64,000 nucleotides of DNA from an uncultured Bacilli bacterium (GCA_947625575.1 CANQOV010000002.1:1457-65456); one strand, 5' to 3'; counted from the stretch's first letter, positions 10,834 through 59,213 are shown. Translations and numbers: made by a program. The notes: generated by a model not told the origin, from the letters alone.

Positions 10834-10910
10834 GGTCCGTTGGTGAAGTGGCTTAACACATCACCCTCTCAAGGTGACATACACGGATTCGAATTCCGTA
10901 CGGACTACCA
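10834..10910 (+). tRNA. tRNA-Glu (anticodon CUC)
   Basis: 77-nt cloverleaf. Acceptor GGTCCGT/ACGGACU, anticodon stem TCACC/GGTGA with loop CTCTCAA, T-arm ACGGA-TTCGAAT-TCCGT, and encoded CCA. It is a close paralog of the tRNA-Glu(UUC) at 59137. Confidence 0.8.
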
Positions 10911-31828: not shown

Positions 31829-31858
31829 GTTGAAAAGATATAAATTTTGTAGTATAAT
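31829..31858 (+). promoter_or_regulatory. sigma-A-type promoter (TTGAAA-17-TATAAT)
   Basis: A -35 TTGAAA and a -10 TATAAT with a 17-bp spacer, upstream of the HA-repeat gene. Confidence 0.5.
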
Positions 31859-31882
31859 ATGAAGACAAAAGGTGGGATTTAT

Positions 31883-33028
31883 ATGGAAAATACAACTAAA
31901 AAGAAAAGAAATAGACTTCCTTGGAACGAAGCATATCAATATGCTAAAAAATATTATGAAGTGCATGGCAATTTGAAAGTGCCTCGTAATTTTGTTACTA
32001 GTGATGGATATAGTTTTGATTCAAACGGAAAGTTTCGTTTAGGTGAGTGGGTTTTTAATCAAAAATCATTAACCCCAAAAGATAGTGAAAGAGGTAAGTT
32101 ATTATCTTTAATAGGATTTAATTTTGAGTATAAATATAGAAAAATTAAATGGGAAGATGGATATCAATATGCAAAAAAATACTATGAAATGCATGGACAT
32201 TTGAAAGTGCCTTTTGATTTTGTTACTAATGATGGATATACTTATAATCCCGAGGGTAAAATACGTTTAGGTAAGTGGATTTTTAATCAAAAATCAATTA
32301 TTTCAAAAAATAGAGAGAAAGGTAAGCTATTAGCTTTGATTGGGATGAGACTTCCTAAAAAAATTAATAATTTATCATGGGAAGAAATGTATAATTATGC
32401 CAAGAAATATTGTGAAGTACATGGTAATATAGATGTCCCTAGAGTATTTAGGACAGATGATGGATATACTTATAATCATGATGGAGAAATTGATTTAGGA
32501 TCATGGATTTATTATCAGAGAAAAGTCGTAAGTCAAAATAGTGAAAAAGGTAAGTTATTATCTTTACTAGGCATGAGATTTTATAAAAAGTACACTATTA
32601 TTTCTTGGGAAGAGATGTATAATTATGCCAAGAAATATTATGAGGTGCATGGTAATTTAAGAATACTTTCCACATTTAAGACAAATGACGGATTTACTTA
32701 TGATCCTGATGGTAAAATTCATTTAGGTTTATGGATTTTTAATCAAAGACATAAAACACCAAAAGATAGTGAAAGGGGTTTAATGCTTTCTAAAATTGGT
32801 ATGATTTGGAACTTTGAAGAAAATAAAAAGAAAGTTCAAGATTTATGTATAAAATATGGTATAGATTATCAAAAAAATAAAGCTTTATTAGATAATATTT
32901 CTATAGATATCTTAGAAGCAAGAGTTCAATTTTTAGGAAAACAAAATGACTTATTAATGAAAAATGATATATTAAATGATAATTATTCATTTTTTGAAGA
33001 AGATAAACCTTTAGTAAGAAAAAGATAG
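31883..33028 (+). CDS. protein built from four tandem helicase-associated (HA, PF03457-like) domains
   Basis: Four 228-bp (76-aa) repeats begin at 31922, 32150, 32378 and 32606. Each has the pattern W-E-x-YQYAKKYYEVHGNL-VP-F-T-DGY-G-W. Confidence 0.65.
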   Translation: MENTTKKKRNRLPWNEAYQYAKKYYEVHGNLKVPRNFVTSDGYSFDSNGKFRLGEWVFNQKSLTPKDSERGKLLSLIGFNFEYKYRKIKWEDGYQYAKKYYEMHGHLKVPFDFVTNDGYTYNPEGKIRLGKWIFNQKSIISKNREKGKLLALIGMRLPKKINNLSWEEMYNYAKKYCEVHGNIDVPRVFRTDDGYTYNHDGEIDLGSWIYYQRKVVSQNSEKGKLLSLLGMRFYKKYTIISWEEMYNYAKKYYEVHGNLRILSTFKTNDGFTYDPDGKIHLGLWIFNQRHKTPKDSERGLMLSKIGMIWNFEENKKKVQDLCIKYGIDYQKNKALLDNISIDILEARVQFLGKQNDLLMKNDILNDNYSFFEEDKPLVRKR

Positions 33029-36983: not shown

Positions 36984-36992
36984 GGGGGGGGG
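36984..36992. repeat. G9 homopolymeric tract preceded by (GT)3, in a promoter region
   Basis: The sequence is gtgtgtGGGGGGGGGtgttataat. It is the only G run of this length in the window. Confidence 0.9.
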
Positions 36993-37028
36993 TGTTATAA
37001 TTAAACTTGTAAGGGTATTTACAAAATA

Positions 37029-37547
37029 ATGAAGGAGGTTTGTAAAAAAATGGAAGAGGATATAGAAACAAATTCTATCTATAGTGAGGATAAAGAAGCA
37101 TTTGAAAAAACAAGATTAGAAAACTTAAGAAAAGAAAGATTAGCTGCTATACAAAAAGCGAAAGAGAATATTCCTAGTTGGATTGAAAGAGGAAAAGCAT
37201 TAATTTTTCCAGAAAGACAAGCTGATTGGGAAAAATGTGTACGAACACACGCGAATTCTATATATAATGGAGAAGATTTAGATGCTGCATTGAAAGTTAT
37301 GGAAGTTTTAGAAAATGGTGCTACAATAGAAGAAGCAAAACAAGTTTTAAAAGAACAAGATTTTGAGCCAGCAGTTTTGCAAATTTTATTTTTATTTTCT
37401 AGTAGAGGTCCAGAATTATTTGAATCAGCTGCTTATTGGAAATTATCAGATAAGGATAAAGAGATAATTGAAGCAAAAAAACAAGAAAATGCTTGGTTAG
37501 CACAAATTAATGATTTTAGGAATAAGGGACATAAGCATAATAATTAA
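37029..37547 (+). CDS. hypothetical protein (165-172 aa ORFan)
   Basis: A GAAGGAGG SD at 37032-37039 favours ATG 37050 as the start. No recognisable domain. G+C appears slightly elevated. Confidence 0.5.
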   Translation: MKEVCKKMEEDIETNSIYSEDKEAFEKTRLENLRKERLAAIQKAKENIPSWIERGKALIFPERQADWEKCVRTHANSIYNGEDLDAALKVMEVLENGATIEEAKQVLKEQDFEPAVLQILFLFSSRGPELFESAAYWKLSDKDKEIIEAKKQENAWLAQINDFRNKGHKHNN

Positions 37548-41750: not shown

Positions 41751-41776
41751 TTAGCACTTGGTATTGACAAGTGCTA
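41751..41776 (+). promoter_or_regulatory. CIRCE operator (HrcA site) overlapping the hsp20 promoter
   Basis: TTAGCACTT-N9-AAGTGCTAA matches CIRCE TTAGCACTC-N9-GAGTGCTAA at 16 of 18 positions. The promoter TTGACA(41764)-16 bp-TGcTATAAT(41786-41791) is embedded in and follows it. Confidence 0.7.
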
Positions 41777-41814
41777 AAAAGGTGCTATAATTAATATTGT
41801 TAGGAGGAATAGAT

Positions 41815-42204
41815 ATGAATTTAGTACCTAGAAAATTTTTCTTGGATGATTTTTTTGATGATATGGAGCCTACTTTTAGAACAAATAACATGAAGTGTGA
41901 TATCTATGAAGAAGACGGTAAATACGTTTTTGAAATGGATATACCAGGATATAATAAAGAGGATATTTCTATTGATTGTGATAAGGGATATCTAACTGTT
42001 ACTGCTTCAAAAGAAAGTAAAGATGAAGTAAGTGATAAAAATTATATTCGTAGAGAAAGAAGTTATGGCAAATGTGTAAGACAGTTTTATTTAGGCGATG
42101 TAGATGAAGAAAATATAACAGCAGAATTTAAAAATGGTATTTTAAAAGTAGTTGCTCCTAAAAAAGGCGAAATTGAAACCAAGAAAAAAATTGAAATTGA
42201 ATAA
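41815..42204 (+). CDS. Hsp20/alpha-crystallin small heat-shock protein
   Basis: Alpha-crystallin domain (DIYEEDGKYVFEMDIPGYNKEDISID ... AEFKNGILKV). AGGAGGA SD. Confidence 0.85.
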   Translation: MNLVPRKFFLDDFFDDMEPTFRTNNMKCDIYEEDGKYVFEMDIPGYNKEDISIDCDKGYLTVTASKESKDEVSDKNYIRRERSYGKCVRQFYLGDVDEENITAEFKNGILKVVAPKKGEIETKKKIEIE

Positions 42205-42211
42205 TTATAAG

Positions 42212-42240
42212 AGACTTTAGTGAAAACTAAAGTCTTTTTT
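42212..42240 (+). terminator. rho-independent terminator
   Basis: AGACTTTAGT-gaaa-ACTAAAGTCT hairpin plus T6. Confidence 0.65.
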
Positions 42241-42244
42241 GCTT

Positions 42245-42307
42245 GTAAAACTATGTGTAAAATTTATTAGTCAAATGCTTGACAATATATATATATATAT
42301 ATATAAT
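42245..42307 (+). promoter_or_regulatory. promoter cassette copy 1 (TTGACA-(TA)n spacer-TATAAT), 52-bp core repeated at 43724
   Basis: GTAAAACTATGTGTAAAATTTATTAGTCAAATGCTTGACAATATATATA recurs at 43724-43772 with one mismatch. The -35 TTGACA is at 42279-42284, the -10 TATAAT at 42302-42307, and the 17-bp spacer is entirely (AT)n. Confidence 0.65.
42285..42305. repeat. (AT)10 dinucleotide microsatellite forming the promoter spacer
   Basis: atatatatatatatatatata can be read directly from the sequence. Confidence 0.9.
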
Positions 42308-42340
42308 GGAATTATAGAAGATAGGAAGTGTGATGAAAAA

Positions 42341-43453
42341 ATGAATAGAAATTTGACAGAAGAAGAAAAAAAAGAACAGGAAAGAAGAACTTTAGAGGAA
42401 CACAAAAAAAATGTCTTTGACACATTGGAACAAGTTTTTAATGCTGAGACTTGTGGTGAATTAAAACATATTTATGAAAAAATGGTGTCTGTTGGCGGAG
42501 ATTTTCTAGGTTGGGGTGGACGTAGTAAAATTGTTAAAGGTAATAGTGATGCTACTGAAAGATTTGAAAAATTTTTTAGGTCTATGCAAATTGGTAATTG
42601 TGTAGATCCACAAGATTTTGATATGGTCCTTGCTTATTTAAAAGATGCTGGATATAAATATGATTATAATGAATGCCAGGTTAAATATCTTAATTATATG
42701 TATAATTTATATGCTTTTAGTGCTAATAAGGGTTTATCTAATTTCTATGTAGATAGTTTGACTGTTGAAAATCTTGATAAATTAGGAGAATTATCAAGGC
42801 ATACAAGGGAAGACAGAAAAGTTTCAATTAATGACCATGCAATAAATTTAAGTGGTAATGATAGGTCCCCTAATATTTATCTTGCACCTAATAATACTTA
42901 TCGTGTTGAGAACATGATTGCATCGCTTCAAAAATCTCTTGTTGATGCTGAAAAAACATTGCCTGCTTATAGGGAAAAGTATAAGCAAATAGAAGATAAA
43001 TATTATAAGATGTTATTTGACTATAGAAAGAAAAGTGTTTTTGGCAGACTTGTATCACATATTAGAGGAGAATACAAAGAATTAAGGTCAGAATTGACTT
43101 CTATGAAACAAGAAATGGAAAAATTAAAAACTTTGGGCTTAAGTCAAATGACTTCTATACAGAAAGCAAAAAACTTTGAAGAATTAAGAGAAAAAAATGA
43201 TGATGAAAGGGAAAAATTTCAAAAAGAATCAAGGAATTTAGAATATAAGAAAAGAGATGCTGAAAAAGAAATGAAGGAAGGAGACGTGAAAATGAGAACT
43301 GTTGGGAAAATTGATGATGCTTTGCGTGATTTGCGTAATGATTATGAGGCAAATTCAAATTTTGTTTATGGTGAACGAAATTCTGAGCCTTTGTTAAAAC
43401 CTATTGAAGTTCCAGAGCTTTCTGAAGATGAAAATACAGGGAGGTCTAGATAA
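42341..43453 (+). CDS. hypothetical protein, ORFan A (370 aa; N-terminal globular region and a long C-terminal coiled coil)
   Basis: Composition is atypical for the host (richer in R, G, Q and C codons, higher G+C). There is no stop over 1.1 kb. Confidence 0.55.
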   Translation: MNRNLTEEEKKEQERRTLEEHKKNVFDTLEQVFNAETCGELKHIYEKMVSVGGDFLGWGGRSKIVKGNSDATERFEKFFRSMQIGNCVDPQDFDMVLAYLKDAGYKYDYNECQVKYLNYMYNLYAFSANKGLSNFYVDSLTVENLDKLGELSRHTREDRKVSINDHAINLSGNDRSPNIYLAPNNTYRVENMIASLQKSLVDAEKTLPAYREKYKQIEDKYYKMLFDYRKKSVFGRLVSHIRGEYKELRSELTSMKQEMEKLKTLGLSQMTSIQKAKNFEELREKNDDEREKFQKESRNLEYKKRDAEKEMKEGDVKMRTVGKIDDALRDLRNDYEANSNFVYGERNSEPLLKPIEVPELSEDENTGRSR

Positions 43454-43455
43454 AA

Positions 43456-43707
43456 ATGGAAGAATTAAATGAGTTGGTTGAATCTTTTTTAGAGTTAACG
43501 ACAGAAGATCAAAAAGATGAAATTGAAAAAGAGATTAAGGCAATGATTATTGCTTTAAATGGTATTAGTGATGATAAAAGTTTTGTAGAGATTCCAAAAG
43601 TGGAAGATTATGAAAGATATGGTATGATTTATGCTTTATTACATGGTTTAGAATATGAAATTAATAAATTTGTTAAAGATAAGATACCAGAAGAGGATGT
43701 CATGTGA
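43456..43707 (+). CDS. small acidic protein, ORFan B (83 aa)
   Basis: Its start lies 2 nt after the ORFan A stop, with a GGGAGG SD inside the ORFan A 3' end. It is highly acidic and helical. Confidence 0.5.
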   Translation: MEELNELVESFLELTTEDQKDEIEKEIKAMIIALNGISDDKSFVEIPKVEDYERYGMIYALLHGLEYEINKFVKDKIPEEDVM

Positions 43708-43722
43708 CATCTTTTTTTTGTT
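43696..43722 (+). terminator. palindromic terminator GATGTCATGTGACATC + T8 (copy 1 of 2)
   Basis: A perfect 16-bp palindrome followed by T8. An identical 33-bp string recurs at 44799-44831. Confidence 0.6.
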
Positions 43723-43807
43723 AGTAAAACTATGTGTAAAATTTATTAGTTAAATGCTTGACAATATATATACTGGAATTGTAAGGTTATAACATAGGAG
43801 GTTATTT

Positions 43808-44791
43808 ATGGAAAGTAATGTTAGATCTACAGATGATAGCGGAAGATTAAATGGGGTTATTGCTAAACTTGATCAATTATTAACTGAATTAGGTGTTGAT
43901 TCTAAATTCAGAGATAATCCTGCATATCAAGATGTGTTAATGAAAATAAGAGGAGCAATGCCAGTTAGAGATATTGAAATTTTAAGTGCTTTTATTGAAA
44001 ATGGTGTGATTTCTTTTAGCACACTAACAGAGAAACGTCAGCAATGCTATGTCGAAGTAACAGCAGGGCCAAATGGAATTCGTTGTGTTTCTTCTTGCAA
44101 TTTTCCAGATAAATTTGATGAAACAAAAGGAGGATACAGTACTACATATCAAAGTGATATAGTAAATGCCCGTGTTGATTCAAATGGACGTATTGCTGTG
44201 CTTAGTGGCTCAACTTTACTTGATGATACTGGTTTGGTATCTGGTACTATGTGTCGTTCAAATTTTTCTAAAGAAATTTATTCTGCTGAAGGAATTGTAG
44301 TAGAGCATGAGTTAGGGCAAACTAAAGAAGGGAGAATTAATTCTTTTGCGTATTTTGACCGTAATAATTCTCTTGAAATTGCTACCTATCCTGTACATTT
44401 TTATCAAAATGATAATATTTGGAATAATTGTGCTTTTATTTCATCTCTTCAATCTTACAGTAAAGTGCAAAGAAAAAATATTGATACAGCTTCTGTATAT
44501 TCTTTTGATAAAGATAATGATAGTGAAGAGAGAGCTACAGTAGAGCTTGGTGGACCGGATTATAGCCACATGCAAGTGATGAGTGTAGAAAATTATCCAG
44601 ATCAACATGTTATTATACCACCTTTATCAACTGAACGTATTGAAGAAATGGTTTCTTATCAAACAAATCCTAAAGTTCAAGAAGGATTAAGAAAAATGGC
44701 TGTTGGTCGAGAAAATTATTCTTATGATTCTTTGAAAGATCCTACATTTAAATATGTTGGACCTCAAGAACAAGCGGGTGTAAGTAGATAA
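43808..44791 (+). CDS. hypothetical protein, ORFan C (327 aa)
   Basis: AGGAGG SD 7 nt upstream. It is preceded by promoter cassette copy 2 and followed by terminator copy 2. Composition is atypical. Confidence 0.55.
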   Translation: MESNVRSTDDSGRLNGVIAKLDQLLTELGVDSKFRDNPAYQDVLMKIRGAMPVRDIEILSAFIENGVISFSTLTEKRQQCYVEVTAGPNGIRCVSSCNFPDKFDETKGGYSTTYQSDIVNARVDSNGRIAVLSGSTLLDDTGLVSGTMCRSNFSKEIYSAEGIVVEHELGQTKEGRINSFAYFDRNNSLEIATYPVHFYQNDNIWNNCAFISSLQSYSKVQRKNIDTASVYSFDKDNDSEERATVELGGPDYSHMQVMSVENYPDQHVIIPPLSTERIEEMVSYQTNPKVQEGLRKMAVGRENYSYDSLKDPTFKYVGPQEQAGVSR

Positions 44792-44798
44792 TTTAATA

Positions 44799-44825
44799 GA
44801 TGTCATGTGACATCTTTTTTTTGTT
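44799..44825 (+). terminator. palindromic terminator GATGTCATGTGACATC + T8 (copy 2 of 2)
   Basis: Identical to 43696-43722. Confidence 0.6.
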
Positions 44826-45453
44826 AGTAAAGTAAAGTTATTTTTTTATTTATTTCTTTTATTAGTCCGTCATCTTTTAAGGCTTTTATTTCTCTTGCCA
44901 TAGCACTTCTATTTATTGATAGGTAGTCTGCTAGAAATGAGTAAGTAAATGGTAAGTTAAATGATTTACTCATATTTTCTTTGGATAGTTTATTAAAGTA
45001 AGCTAATAGTTTTTCTCTTATTGATCTTTTGGTTAATATTTCTATTCTTATGGTTTGTTCTATTATTTTATCTTTGAAGATATTAAATAAGTTTTCTATT
45101 AGTTTGTTGGTATTTTTATTAGGGTTTTTTATGATATCATCATAGTTTATAAATAATATTTTTGATGTTGTTGTGGCTATTAGAGATGTTTCGTTATTAT
45201 CCATTTGATAGAATATGTCACTAAAGATATCTCCTTGGTTTAAGTGTTCTATTATTGTTCTATCTCCGTTGTAGTCATAACGTACTAAATCTATTTGTCC
45301 TTCTTCAATTATACCTATTAGATTTGAGTTGTTGACGTAAGATGCAATTGTCTTATTTTTTGTAAATATAACTTGGGTTGACTGTAAAGAATTTAAAAGA
45401 TTTTTTTTCTCGTTTTCATCAATTCCTTGAAAAATAAGGGGTTTGTTTAACAT
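44824..45453 (-). CDS. Crp/Fnr-family transcriptional regulator
   Basis: N-terminal cNMP-binding beta-roll (GIIEEGQIDLVRYDYNGDRTIIEHLNQGDIFSD) and a C-terminal HTH (FTYSFLADYLSINRSAMAREIKALKDDGLI). Confidence 0.8.
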   Translation of the reverse strand: MLNKPLIFQGIDENEKKNLLNSLQSTQVIFTKNKTIASYVNNSNLIGIIEEGQIDLVRYDYNGDRTIIEHLNQGDIFSDIFYQMDNNETSLIATTTSKILFINYDDIIKNPNKNTNKLIENLFNIFKDKIIEQTIRIEILTKRSIREKLLAYFNKLSKENMSKSFNLPFTYSFLADYLSINRSAMAREIKALKDDGLIKEINKKITLLY

Positions 45454-45490
45454 AATTTTTTGCTCCTTTTATTTAATTTAATTATATTTT

Positions 45491-45516
45491 AAAAATGTTG
45501 CAATTGCAACATTTTT
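45491..45516. promoter_or_regulatory. perfect 26-bp palindrome AAAAATGTTGCAA|TTGCAACATTTTT in a divergent intergenic region
   Basis: Read directly from the sequence. It lies between the Crp/Fnr gene start (45453) and the nrdD-paralog operon. Confidence 0.5.
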
Positions 45517-45657
45517 ATTTTAAATATTTTGTTATGATTTTCTTGTAAGAATATTTTAGGAAGTTGTGGTGATGTAGTTATAAAAGTTATTAAACGAGAC
45601 GGTAGAGCTGTTGAATATGATAGTGATAAGATAAGAATTGCTATTGGTAAAGCTAAT

Positions 45658-47352
45658 ATGGAACTTCCTGTTGATAAACAAATTTCTAAAGAAAAAATAG
45701 AAGAAATTATAAAGTATGTTGAAAGTTTAAATAAGAAACGGATTTTAGTTGAAGATATTCAAGATATTATCGAACAAAAACTTATGGAATTTGGGAAGTA
45801 TGATTTAGCTAAGATTTATATTATTTATCGCTATACAAGGATGCTTGTTAGGAAAAGTAATACGACTGATGAATCAATATTATCTATTATTAAAAATAGT
45901 GATGATAGCATTATTAAAGAAAAACTTAAAAAAGACTATTTATATGTCTATGAACATAATGATTTAATTGCTACAGAAGTTTCTAAAGATTTAACAAGAA
46001 GAGTACTACTTAGTGAAGATGTTACTAAAAGTATAGATAATGGGGCAATATATTTTCATGATTTAGGTTATTTTATTCAACATTTGATATGTTCTAGTAT
46101 TTTAGATATTAAATATATTTTAGAAAATGATATGTTTGTTCATGGATATAAACTTAAAAAACCAACTGATATTGTTAGTGCTTGCTCTAATTTAGGTAAA
46201 GTTATTTTAGAGTGTGCGTCATCACAAACTAAAGATATAACTATTGATCTTAAATATTTTTTGGATATGTTAGATAAAGATTATGCTTTAGGAATAAAGG
46301 TTTTGTTTGATATTATTAGTTCATTTATCAGTGTTAGAGGGCATGTTGCTATAGTTAATTTTATTTTAAATGTTGAAAGTGAAAAATTAATTAATTTTTA
46401 TCTAGAGTTTTTAAAAGAGTATAGTGTATTTGATGCTGATAAAGAGTATTGTCCTAGATTAATATATGTTCTTGATGAAAATACAAGTGATGTTAATAGT
46501 AAATTTTATAAAGTTACTAAAGCAGTTATTGATTTATCAATGGAAGGTTATCCAATAAATTATTTTTCTAATAAAAAAATGCTTACTTATTATCAGGGTA
46601 AAATGATTTTACCAATTAATTTTAATCGAATGATGTTACCTTATAAAAATAAAGAGGGGGAATATCAAACTTTAGGAAGATTTGATCAGGGTATGGTAAG
46701 TGTTAATTTGAATCAGATTGGATTATCTTGTAGTGATGATGAAGAGTTCTTTAAGTTATTAGATGAGAAGTTAGATATTGCTATTGAAGCTCTTATGAGT
46801 AAATATTTTAATCTTTTAGGAACTGATTGTAATAGTAATGCTGTAGCTTTTAGATATGGAGCAATTATGGTTTGTTTAAATAAAAATATTGATGAGTATC
46901 TAAAAGATAATTATTCTTGTTTATGTTTAGGATTGAGTGGTCTTTATGATTTAGTTACTAATTATAAAAAGATTGATTTTTACAGTGAAGATAGTTTTAA
47001 GTTTATTACTTTAGTTATTAGTTATATAAATAAGAGAATAGAGCTTTTGAGAAAACAAACTAAGATTGGATTTATGGTGGTTTTGGATGATGATTATTTA
47101 GCTAATTTAAATTTTCTTATGAAAGATAAAGAAAATTTGAGTTATAAAGGGGATTTGGTCTATCAGAATTTACCTATTGTTAAGGATATTGATGAGTTAA
47201 GATTTCAAGGTATTATTCAAGACTTAATGAAAGGTAATTGTGTTATAAGACTTGATATAGAAAATAAAGATGTTGATTATCTTATCAAGTACATATATGA
47301 AAATATTTTCTATGTAACTTTGAAAACTGGCAATGAAATTAAGGAGGAGTAA
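45658..47352 (+). CDS. NrdD-like paralog, catalytically degenerate (ATP-cone homology continues upstream to ~45574 with no in-frame canonical start)
   Basis: Aligns to the N-terminal two thirds of the genuine NrdD. ATP-cone ends YRYTRMLVRKSNTTDESI versus YRYKRQLVREGNTTDKNI, and the FHD region is shared. It lacks the CMGCRS thiyl-radical Cys region, the Zn ribbon and the C-terminal RTCGY glycyl-radical motif. Confidence 0.65.
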   Translation: MELPVDKQISKEKIEEIIKYVESLNKKRILVEDIQDIIEQKLMEFGKYDLAKIYIIYRYTRMLVRKSNTTDESILSIIKNSDDSIIKEKLKKDYLYVYEHNDLIATEVSKDLTRRVLLSEDVTKSIDNGAIYFHDLGYFIQHLICSSILDIKYILENDMFVHGYKLKKPTDIVSACSNLGKVILECASSQTKDITIDLKYFLDMLDKDYALGIKVLFDIISSFISVRGHVAIVNFILNVESEKLINFYLEFLKEYSVFDADKEYCPRLIYVLDENTSDVNSKFYKVTKAVIDLSMEGYPINYFSNKKMLTYYQGKMILPINFNRMMLPYKNKEGEYQTLGRFDQGMVSVNLNQIGLSCSDDEEFFKLLDEKLDIAIEALMSKYFNLLGTDCNSNAVAFRYGAIMVCLNKNIDEYLKDNYSCLCLGLSGLYDLVTNYKKIDFYSEDSFKFITLVISYINKRIELLRKQTKIGFMVVLDDDYLANLNFLMKDKENLSYKGDLVYQNLPIVKDIDELRFQGIIQDLMKGNCVIRLDIENKDVDYLIKYIYENIFYVTLKTGNEIKEE

Positions 47353-59136: not shown

Positions 59137-59213
59137 GGCCAGTTGGTGAAGTGGCTTAACACACTGCCCTTTCACGGCAGCACTCACGGATTCGAATTCC
59201 GTACTGGTCACCA
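59137..59213 (+). tRNA. tRNA-Glu (anticodon UUC)
   Basis: 77-nt cloverleaf with anticodon stem CTGCC/GGCAG, loop CTTTCAC and encoded CCA. Confidence 0.85.

Follow-up and report, generated by a model that had tools for sequence, protein, structure and literature searches.

In bacterial segmental duplication via short direct repeats, the middle junction links the right end of the duplicated segment with the left one, the overlap of both halves being a repeat that is found at both outer borders. In Haemophilus influenzae, fimbrial expression is controlled by a phase switch, a (TA)9-11 tract within the hifA and hifB promoter region (PMC2651432). Here, we compare these two systems with a locus in a 64-kb window (CANQOV010000002.1:1457-65456, assembly GCA_947625575.1), which is the whole stretch of DNA that was analysed and makes up 93% of a 69-kb source contig from an uncultured low-GC gut bacterium of the class Bacilli (about 26% G+C). 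Between hsp20 and the gene of a Crp/Fnr-family regulator (crp), the window carries a block of three genes, A, B and C, arranged in two units, A-B and C. An original prediction made from the sequence of this stretch had proposed that the same promoter and the same terminator recur at the borders of the units, and this proves to be the case. We favour the reading, with a probability of roughly 0.55, that A-B and C are native, lineage-specific units of the chromosome and that a terminator-promoter module was duplicated locally. The evidence consists of two near-perfect repeats, of a middle junction composed of parts of the two outer junctions, and of relatives of C that occupy a conserved locus in related genera.

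The promoter module and the terminator module T2 each occur twice. They are distributed over three junctions, J1 (hsp20 to A), J2 (B to C) and J3 (C to crp), with the following features:

42209-42238, plus strand: T1, the intrinsic terminator of hsp20 (13-bp stem followed by a T-run; -14.9 kcal/mol, z = -5.8)
42235-42316, plus strand: promoter module copy 1, at J1 (-35 TTGACA at 42279-42284; -10 TATAAT at 42302-42307; 12/12 consensus)
42285-42304, plus strand: (TA)10 tract, the longest TA run of the window
43696-43728, plus strand: T2 terminator module copy 1, the left half of J2 (GATGTC-ATGT-GACATC hairpin, T8 and GTTAGTAAA; -14.5 kcal/mol with flanking pairs)
43714-43783, plus strand: promoter module copy 2, the right half of J2 (-35 TTGACA at 43758-43763; (TA)4; predicted weak)
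44799-44831, plus strand: T2 terminator module copy 2, at J3 (identical to copy 1; last 8 nt overlap the 3' end of crp)

The two promoter copies share a gapless core of 59 nt (42235-42293 and 43714-43772), in which 56 positions are identical (95%). The original prediction had recognised the inner part of this repeat, and a single mismatch is indeed found between 42245-42293 and 43724-43772; the similarity extends outwards from there to the full 59-nt core. Past a 12-nt indel, (TA)6, the repeat resumes for about 10-20 nt, through TGGAATT(A/G)TA. Beyond the promoter repeat, the 5' regions of A and C align no better than shuffled sequences, 39% of which score as high or higher. The two copies of T2 are identical at 33 of 33 positions, again as predicted. 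The string GATGTCATGTGACATC within T2, which had been read as a perfect palindrome, is in fact a stem of 6-7 bp with a loop of 2-4 nt, followed by T8 and GTTAGTAAA. Shuffled sequence is expected to yield 0 matches to the promoter or the terminator pattern, and the two modules are the sole non-coding repeats of at least 95% identity in the window.

The junctions recur, at 99.7-100% identity to the window, in contigs of four other samples (L001, L004, L093 and L094; labels from L001 to L094 and P0002, P0006 and P0008 denote fetched contigs or contexts, and 92 loci were fetched overall). Hence, assembly error does not account for the repeats, which are real. The other contigs that bear the block probably represent the same strain as the window. 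For tracing further copies, the duplicated modules provide the strings TGTGTAAAATTTATTAGTNAAATGCTTGACA and GATGTCATGTGACATCTTTTTTTT. Each module core has exactly two copies in the window, both at this locus, and no further copy was found in the loci fetched from relatives, in viral scans or in a metagenome scan, the latter with the promoter core only. Among the 92 fetched loci, the modules match only in L001, L004 and L012, which are this very locus. Thus, the wider cassette family envisaged by the original prediction gains no additional member from the window, the fetched loci or the metagenome and viral collections. Upstream of the -35 element, a direct repeat of the response-regulator type, TGTAAA-N6-TGTAAA, shows no enrichment beyond the two promoter copies.

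The anatomy of the junctions is informative with respect to their origin. J1 begins with its own terminator T1, the sequence of which is unlike T2, and continues with TTTTTTGCTTGTAAA and the promoter; within promoter module copy 1, TTTTTTGCTTGTAAA is followed by the upstream region, the -35 element, a 17-nt spacer, the -10 element and TGGAATTATA. J2 (43696-43783) is composed of T2, TTTTTTGTTAGTAAA and the promoter, and J3 of T2 followed by TTTTTTGTTAGTAAA. In other words, J2 is the terminator of J3 (33/33 nt) joined to the promoter of J1 (56/59 nt and the stretch past the indel). Where the two halves of J2 overlap lies a T-rich string of 15 nt, TTTTTTG[C/T]T[T/A]GTAAA, common to J1, J2 and J3. 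On sequence grounds, this pattern is the signature of a duplication junction between short direct repeats: the right end of a segment is joined to its left end, and the overlap lies in a 15-nt repeat found at both outer borders. The spread of units through duplication or recombination, as originally proposed, is therefore borne out locally, with the middle junction being a chimera of the outer two. In contrast to segmental duplications of the known kind, the "copies" hold unrelated genes, so that further deletions or a replacement have to be assumed, and just the regulatory ends (about 60-90 nt) are duplicated.

The J3 copy of T2 is probably the original because it is constrained by its overlap with the 3' end of crp, which is convergent and encoded on the opposite strand: the last 8 nt of this copy are the stop codon and final codons of crp. 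At J2, the last four codons of B, stop codon included, fall within the T2 hairpin, an indication that this gene became fused to the terminator at its 3' end. J2 itself would have arisen when the short repeats recombined with one another or when replication slipped between them. One conceivable route starts with the tandem duplication of an ancestral promoter-A-B-C-T2 unit and proceeds by complementary losses, the first copy giving up C and the second A-B; a replacement event could stand in for these losses. The outcome would be an A-B unit and a C unit, each with its own promoter and terminator. Since the sole indel between the promoter copies sits in the TA tract, this tract has changed its length since the duplication. 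Judging from the junctions, the module was evidently duplicated locally and is shared by the two units.

The second part of the favoured reading, that the units are native and lineage-specific, concerns the genes themselves:

41815-42204, plus strand: hsp20, open reading frame (ORF)
42341-43453, plus strand: gene A, 370 residues, with an AGGAAG ribosome-binding site
43456-43707, plus strand: gene B, 83 residues, with its own GGGAGG ribosome-binding site
43808-44791, plus strand: gene C, 327 residues, with an AGGAGG ribosome-binding site, the strongest among those of A, B and C
44824-45453, minus strand: crp, Crp/Fnr-family regulator, with the Pfam domains cNMP_binding and HTH_Crp_2

Gene order, gene sizes and the gap of 2 nt between the stop codon of A and the start codon of B agree with the original description. 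The ORFs of A, B and C are real. A and C follow the usual coding pattern of G+C content at the three codon positions (GC1 > GC2 > GC3), and the 370-codon open frame of A is not attributable to chance in DNA of 26% G+C. Public gene calls extend A to 392 residues, from an ATG at 42275 just upstream of and overlapping the -35 hexamer. As this start codon would fall inside the promoter, the start at 42341 appears more plausible. B is highly acidic, as had been noted (pI 4.2; 23 acidic and 9 basic residues). All three proteins are hydrophilic, and neither a membrane segment nor a signal peptide is predicted in any of them. Searches against Pfam, NCBIfam, PADLOC and PHROG, as well as sequence searches against the PDB, gave no credible match for A, B or C, in line with the earlier statement that no domains are recognisable. 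The three are best described as putative soluble cytoplasmic proteins without recognisable domains and with a lineage-restricted distribution.

The distribution differs between the genes. A matches itself only, both in a word-indexed search of 5.8 billion clusters and in an exhaustive phmmer search of 1.84 billion representatives, and is by this measure a strict orphan. B is the sole member of its 90% identity cluster, as judged by a cluster look-up only. C belongs to a family of eight Bacilli proteins with 35 invariant columns, the others being 26-29% identical to C; one member occurs in Candidatus Faecimonas intestinavium (class Bacilli), and the assignment of the source bacterium to this class derives from that homologue. 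The orphan status claimed by the original prediction is thus sustained, in the sense that A matches itself only and that C has a family of eight.

In all four contexts examined (P0002, P0006, P0008 and L005, which are Faecimonas-like contigs), the homologue of C adjoins a convergent RNase HIII gene. Where the contig reaches far enough, an Xre-type membrane protein is encoded upstream of the C homologue, and the RNase HIII gene is followed by cvpA. The locus is situated a few kb downstream of dnaJ, and in L005 also of dnaK. Because the homologues examined keep this conserved locus, C represents an old lineage-specific chromosomal family and not a recent import, even though its position differs here. 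The homologues are probably inherited vertically at a housekeeping locus of related genera. C aligns over about 90% of its length with the seven other members of this RNase HIII-linked family (about 304-327 residues, unnamed, without a Pfam entry) and shares with them the motif NPAY, a PLS..IE helix and a C-terminal EGLR...R..Y.YDS..D motif. It differs from them in sequence, as the low identity given above indicates, and in location: C lies beside hsp20 and crp under the duplicated promoter, whereas the others lie between the Xre-type membrane protein and RNase HIII. Among the 80 loci fetched through NrdD, none has hsp20, A, B or C adjacent to crp. The closest relative found (L013; NrdD 88% identical) keeps the order crp, nrdD-like, nrdD and nrdG; the genes upstream of crp differ, and hsp20, A, B and C are not among them.

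Several points weigh against this reading. The sequences of A-B and C are not similar to each other; tandem duplication by itself is therefore insufficient, and extra deletion or replacement events are needed. The block, or the entire left flank, is not conserved at this position, since L013 lacks hsp20, A, B and C upstream of crp. A genome-wide family of the module is possible, as the sequence searched amounts to 64 kb of the genome. The roles of promoter and terminator are putative and derive from consensus matching and folding. Finally, a bias towards CGT codons in C and towards AGG codons in A could mean transfer from another low-GC donor.

Next, we consider the promoters, which give rise to the first of the rival explanations. 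Copy 1 is a perfect TTGACA-17-TATAAT promoter, in which (TA)10 makes up the entire spacer between -35 and -10 and the first half of the -10 hexamer; the tract thereby fills the spacer exactly and sets the optimal distance of 17 nt. Besides being the longest TA run of the window, (TA)10 exceeds all runs in 200 Markov simulations, of which the longest was 17 nt. Copy 2 keeps TTGACA. With (TA)4, TATACT sits 5 nt away, the best usable -10 element is TAAGGT after 18 nt, and a promoter scan does not call this copy. A-B is predicted to be strongly transcribed, with a strength that would depend on tract length. For C, weak or read-through transcription is predicted because (TA)4 would abolish the promoter spacing.

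This arrangement resembles that of the hif genes, where a tract of about ten TA units likewise lies between -35 and -10 and the repeat number sets the spacing; a repeat tract within the -35/-10 spacer is found here at 42285-42304. The locus might therefore be read as phase-variable, i.e., as a contingency locus in which slipped-strand changes of (TA)n toggle the expression of A-B and, historically, of C between a high and a low level. The precedent of the (TA)9-11 tract in the hif genes (PMC2651432) speaks for this possibility, as does the sister promoter, which differs by exactly (TA)6 and has its spacing abolished. A second unusual repeat, G9, in the promoter of another orphan gene 5 kb away points in the same direction. 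Yet the tract has the same length in all four covering assemblies (window, L001, L004 and L093), so that the length variation of the hif tract is not mirrored, although this is a weak test since the assemblies are consensus sequences of about 2x coverage, are 99.7-100% identical and probably represent one strain. The 12-nt difference between the two promoter copies is a historical change and not reversible switching. Surface structures or restriction-modification systems are the usual products of classical contingency genes, whereas A, B and C are cytoplasmic and not surface proteins. Further differences from the hif genes are that the promoter is unidirectional here and shared by divergent genes there, that the products are cytoplasmic orphans here and fimbriae there, and that AT-rich runs are frequent in the host, a Bacilli bacterium of low G+C content. 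Taken together, we consider phase variation rather unlikely. The pairing of a (TA)10 consensus promoter with a (TA)4 sister is nonetheless the most interesting residue of the analysis, and that it could be a repeat-based expression switch is put forward tentatively, as a doubtful proposition.

The G9 homopolymer (36984-37001) is very unusual at 26% G+C. It is located directly upstream of an extended -10 element (TGTTATAAT) and precedes an ORF without a Pfam match (37050-37547, about 165 residues). A second repeat-controlled promoter, 5 kb from the locus, is possible at this site.

Elements of the BOX/RUP or Correia type supply terminators and promoters across a genome. The module described here might be a member of such a dispersed, possibly mobile family of intergenic repeats: J2 is compact (about 88 nt) and has a hairpin at its start, partial copies are present at J1 and J3, and 15-mers like TTTTTTGTTAGTAAA occur 12 times in the window versus 4.7 times expected, the three at the junctions counted. 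In one sample the assembly breaks at J1, where L011, which carries hsp20, ends at 42233 and L093, which carries A, starts at 42243. Against this reading, neither core has a further copy in the 64 kb or in the other collections searched, and terminal inverted repeats and target-site duplications are absent from the module. Moreover, the pattern of a left half, a right half and a chimera is predicted by a local duplication junction and not by independent insertions. A dispersed repeat is thus an improbable source of the module. As for the break at J1 (sample ERZ27249684), its position just before the promoter repeat fits a repeat-induced or a low-coverage break.

The original prediction itself had interpreted the block as a horizontally acquired accessory module built from promoter-gene-terminator cassettes, in which either A-B would serve as a toxin with its immunity protein, or as an effector with its chaperone, or A-B-C would form an undescribed defence system. 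It rested this view in part on a G+C content of 35-40% and on a codon choice foreign to the genome. The measured G+C content is 30.2% for A, 27.0% for B, 32.9% for C and 30.1% for the block, versus 26.2% for the window. Although slightly above average, the block lies within the range of the window: about 7% of equal-sized windows are as high, and several housekeeping genes have 31-33%. A higher-GC insertion is accordingly not upheld by the windowed profile. GC3 is the best indicator of foreign origin, and the values of A (0.18) and C (0.13) are native, with a median of 0.15. The small G+C excess therefore sits in codon positions 1 and 2 and reflects amino-acid composition. With respect to the codons named as foreign, CGT is enriched, in C only, where it accounts for 7 of 18 arginine codons against a background of 7% (P = 1.4e-4); GGC, GCG and CAG occur 0-3 times per gene. 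In A, AGG provides 9 of 26 arginine codons against a background of about 10%. Such odd arginine codon use would suit an acquired module; its possible causes include the level of expression and an ancient transfer out of a different low-GC genome. The interval from 41.3 to 45.5 kb contains no ORF for an integrase or transposase, the closest tRNA gene is 4.5 kb away from the block, and phage, viral and plasmid collections contain no match to the block. Classification as a genomic island is supported neither by composition and codon use, GC3 being native and the G+C content of the block within range, nor by mobility genes or tRNA insertion.

Distribution and layout can be read in favour of acquisition. 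The nearest relative lacks the block upstream of crp, and homologues of A or B were not detected outside the strain (A exhaustively; B by the single-member cluster look-up only). Furthermore, toxin-immunity pairs often have the layout seen here, a gene for a large protein and, 2 nt on, one for a small acidic protein. Like toxin-immunity and toxin-antitoxin pairs (LXG/WXG, type II), A-B consists of a larger gene and a coupled small acidic gene of narrow distribution. In contrast to those pairs, a toxin or trafficking domain, a nearby secretion system and homologues in other strains are all missing here, and in most type II toxin-antitoxin systems the gene order is the reverse of that of A-B. 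The domain libraries contain no toxin, secretion (LXG, WXG100, Rhs), nuclease, nucleoside triphosphatase or defence domain for A, B or C and indicate no enzymatic, toxic or defensive role for them; type VII secretion genes are absent from the 35 window proteins scanned against Pfam. There is thus no positive evidence for the proposed toxin-immunity pair, effector-chaperone pair or defence system in the domain libraries or among these 35 proteins. The proteins also have no signal peptide or transmembrane segment, the homologues of C reside at a conserved housekeeping locus in related genera and are probably vertical, and the Crp/Fnr neighbour belongs with nrdD, as described below. We regard an acquired toxin, effector or defence module as distinctly unlikely. 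Still less credible is the combination by which A-B, and formerly C, would be a contingency locus whose hypermutable (TA)n spacer switches a new cytoplasmic two-protein system, e.g., an undescribed abortive-infection or defence module built from a coiled-coil protein and its small acidic partner; were it true, the duplicated terminator-promoter module would be the means by which switchable units multiply.

Individual similarities were traced to other causes. The resemblance of A to a JetC-type defence protein in PADLOC-DB v2 involves the coiled-coil region only and is noise (E = 0.003-0.0075, 12-13 bits); the same database returned nothing for B or C. B scores against phrog_14207 (E = 1.5e-4) and the dimeric dUTPase 1w2y (E = 0.018) for compositional reasons: halophilic malate dehydrogenases score too, and no catalytic motif is aligned. 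Neither A nor B qualifies as a paralogue of C, as no similarity is found. The structural model of A, computed from the single sequence, has a predicted local distance difference test (pLDDT) score of 52 and is unreliable; it is all-helical with long C-terminal helices (about residues 185-346). For C, a model based on the eight-sequence alignment (pLDDT 71.6, predicted template modelling score 0.71) comprises four short N-terminal helices, a 13-strand antiparallel beta-meander and C-terminal helices. A Foldseek search with this model against the PDB and BFVD gave nothing significant. C is thus modelled as a large curved sheet without an assignable relative among solved or viral structures. A and B would be translationally coupled and, with low confidence, probably associate in a cytoplasmic complex, the coiled-coil protein A having B as its small, acidic and helical partner. 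Likewise with low confidence, C may be an independent soluble protein.

Regulation by the Crp/Fnr neighbour, which had also been suggested, is contradicted by the context of crp. In L013 and many others of the 80 NrdD loci, nrdD, or nrdD-like together with nrdD, is preceded by a divergent Crp/Fnr gene. In the window, a perfect 28-bp palindrome (45490-45517) with the core TGTTGCAATTGCAACA is located between the divergent crp and nrdD-like genes. The motif GTTGCA-N2-TGCAAC is exact in seven of ten crp-nrdD intergenic regions of relatives, and the other three contain a variant (GTGCA as left arm or one base off); positions include 8004-8020 in L013, 9934-9954 in L019 and 3134-3150 in L021. The window has a single exact copy, at 45497-45510, and none near 42.2 or 43.7 kb, i.e., near the promoters of A-B and C. 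We infer that GTTGCA-N2-TGCAAC is a candidate operator of a Crp/Fnr-type regulator for the anaerobic ribonucleotide reductase genes. Since the divergent pair and the palindromic site recur in most relatives examined, crp belongs with these genes, and nothing ties it to A, B or C.

The motif is distinct from the classical boxes of FNR and CRP. A divergent NrdD paralogue (45571-47352, 564 residues as listed) is encoded immediately upstream of the true nrdD; it is 25-36% identical to the NrdD of relatives, and the same arrangement exists in L013. The ATP-cone frame of the paralogue already runs for about 27 codons ahead of the first canonical start codon, so that its start is non-canonical or its N-terminus truncated.

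The other neighbours have ordinary housekeeping roles; they comprise rnc, gmk, nrdD/nrdG and hsp20, the last with a CIRCE site. Eight of 32 other window proteins scanned also have no Pfam match, so that a run of three orphans is unremarkable in this genome. The CIRCE-type inverted repeat, TTAGCACTT-N9-AAGTGCTAA at 41751-41777, overlaps the consensus promoter of hsp20 (TTGACA at 41764), which suggests that hsp20 is probably controlled by HrcA; no CIRCE-type site precedes A or C. Elsewhere in the window, four tandem 228-nt units (65-71% identical, 31851-32779) lie inside an ORF (31859-33028), which accordingly encodes a protein with 76-residue repeats. ARAGORN detects two tRNA-Glu genes, at 10834-10910 and 59137-59213 (anticodons CTC and TTC), which are missing from the Rfam list at gathering threshold.

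On the whole, the original observation is partly confirmed: repeats, gene layout and orphan status hold, and the claims on G+C content and codon use largely fail. Its interpretation is partly supported, in that local duplication of the module and lineage restriction hold, and horizontal transfer, a cassette family, a toxin or defence function and control by Crp/Fnr lack support or are contradicted. The locus is a modest curiosity that opens no new biological question at present, and its significance grows only if the TA tract proves variable or A-B has a phenotype. It adds three uncharacterised proteins to the orphan pool of uncultured gut Bacilli. If native units with a locally duplicated module are the correct reading, the locus would show how a TA microsatellite makes or breaks a consensus promoter, and it would be a clean, small example of an operon split or rewired by a copy of an approximately 90-nt terminator-promoter module through a 15-nt microhomology.

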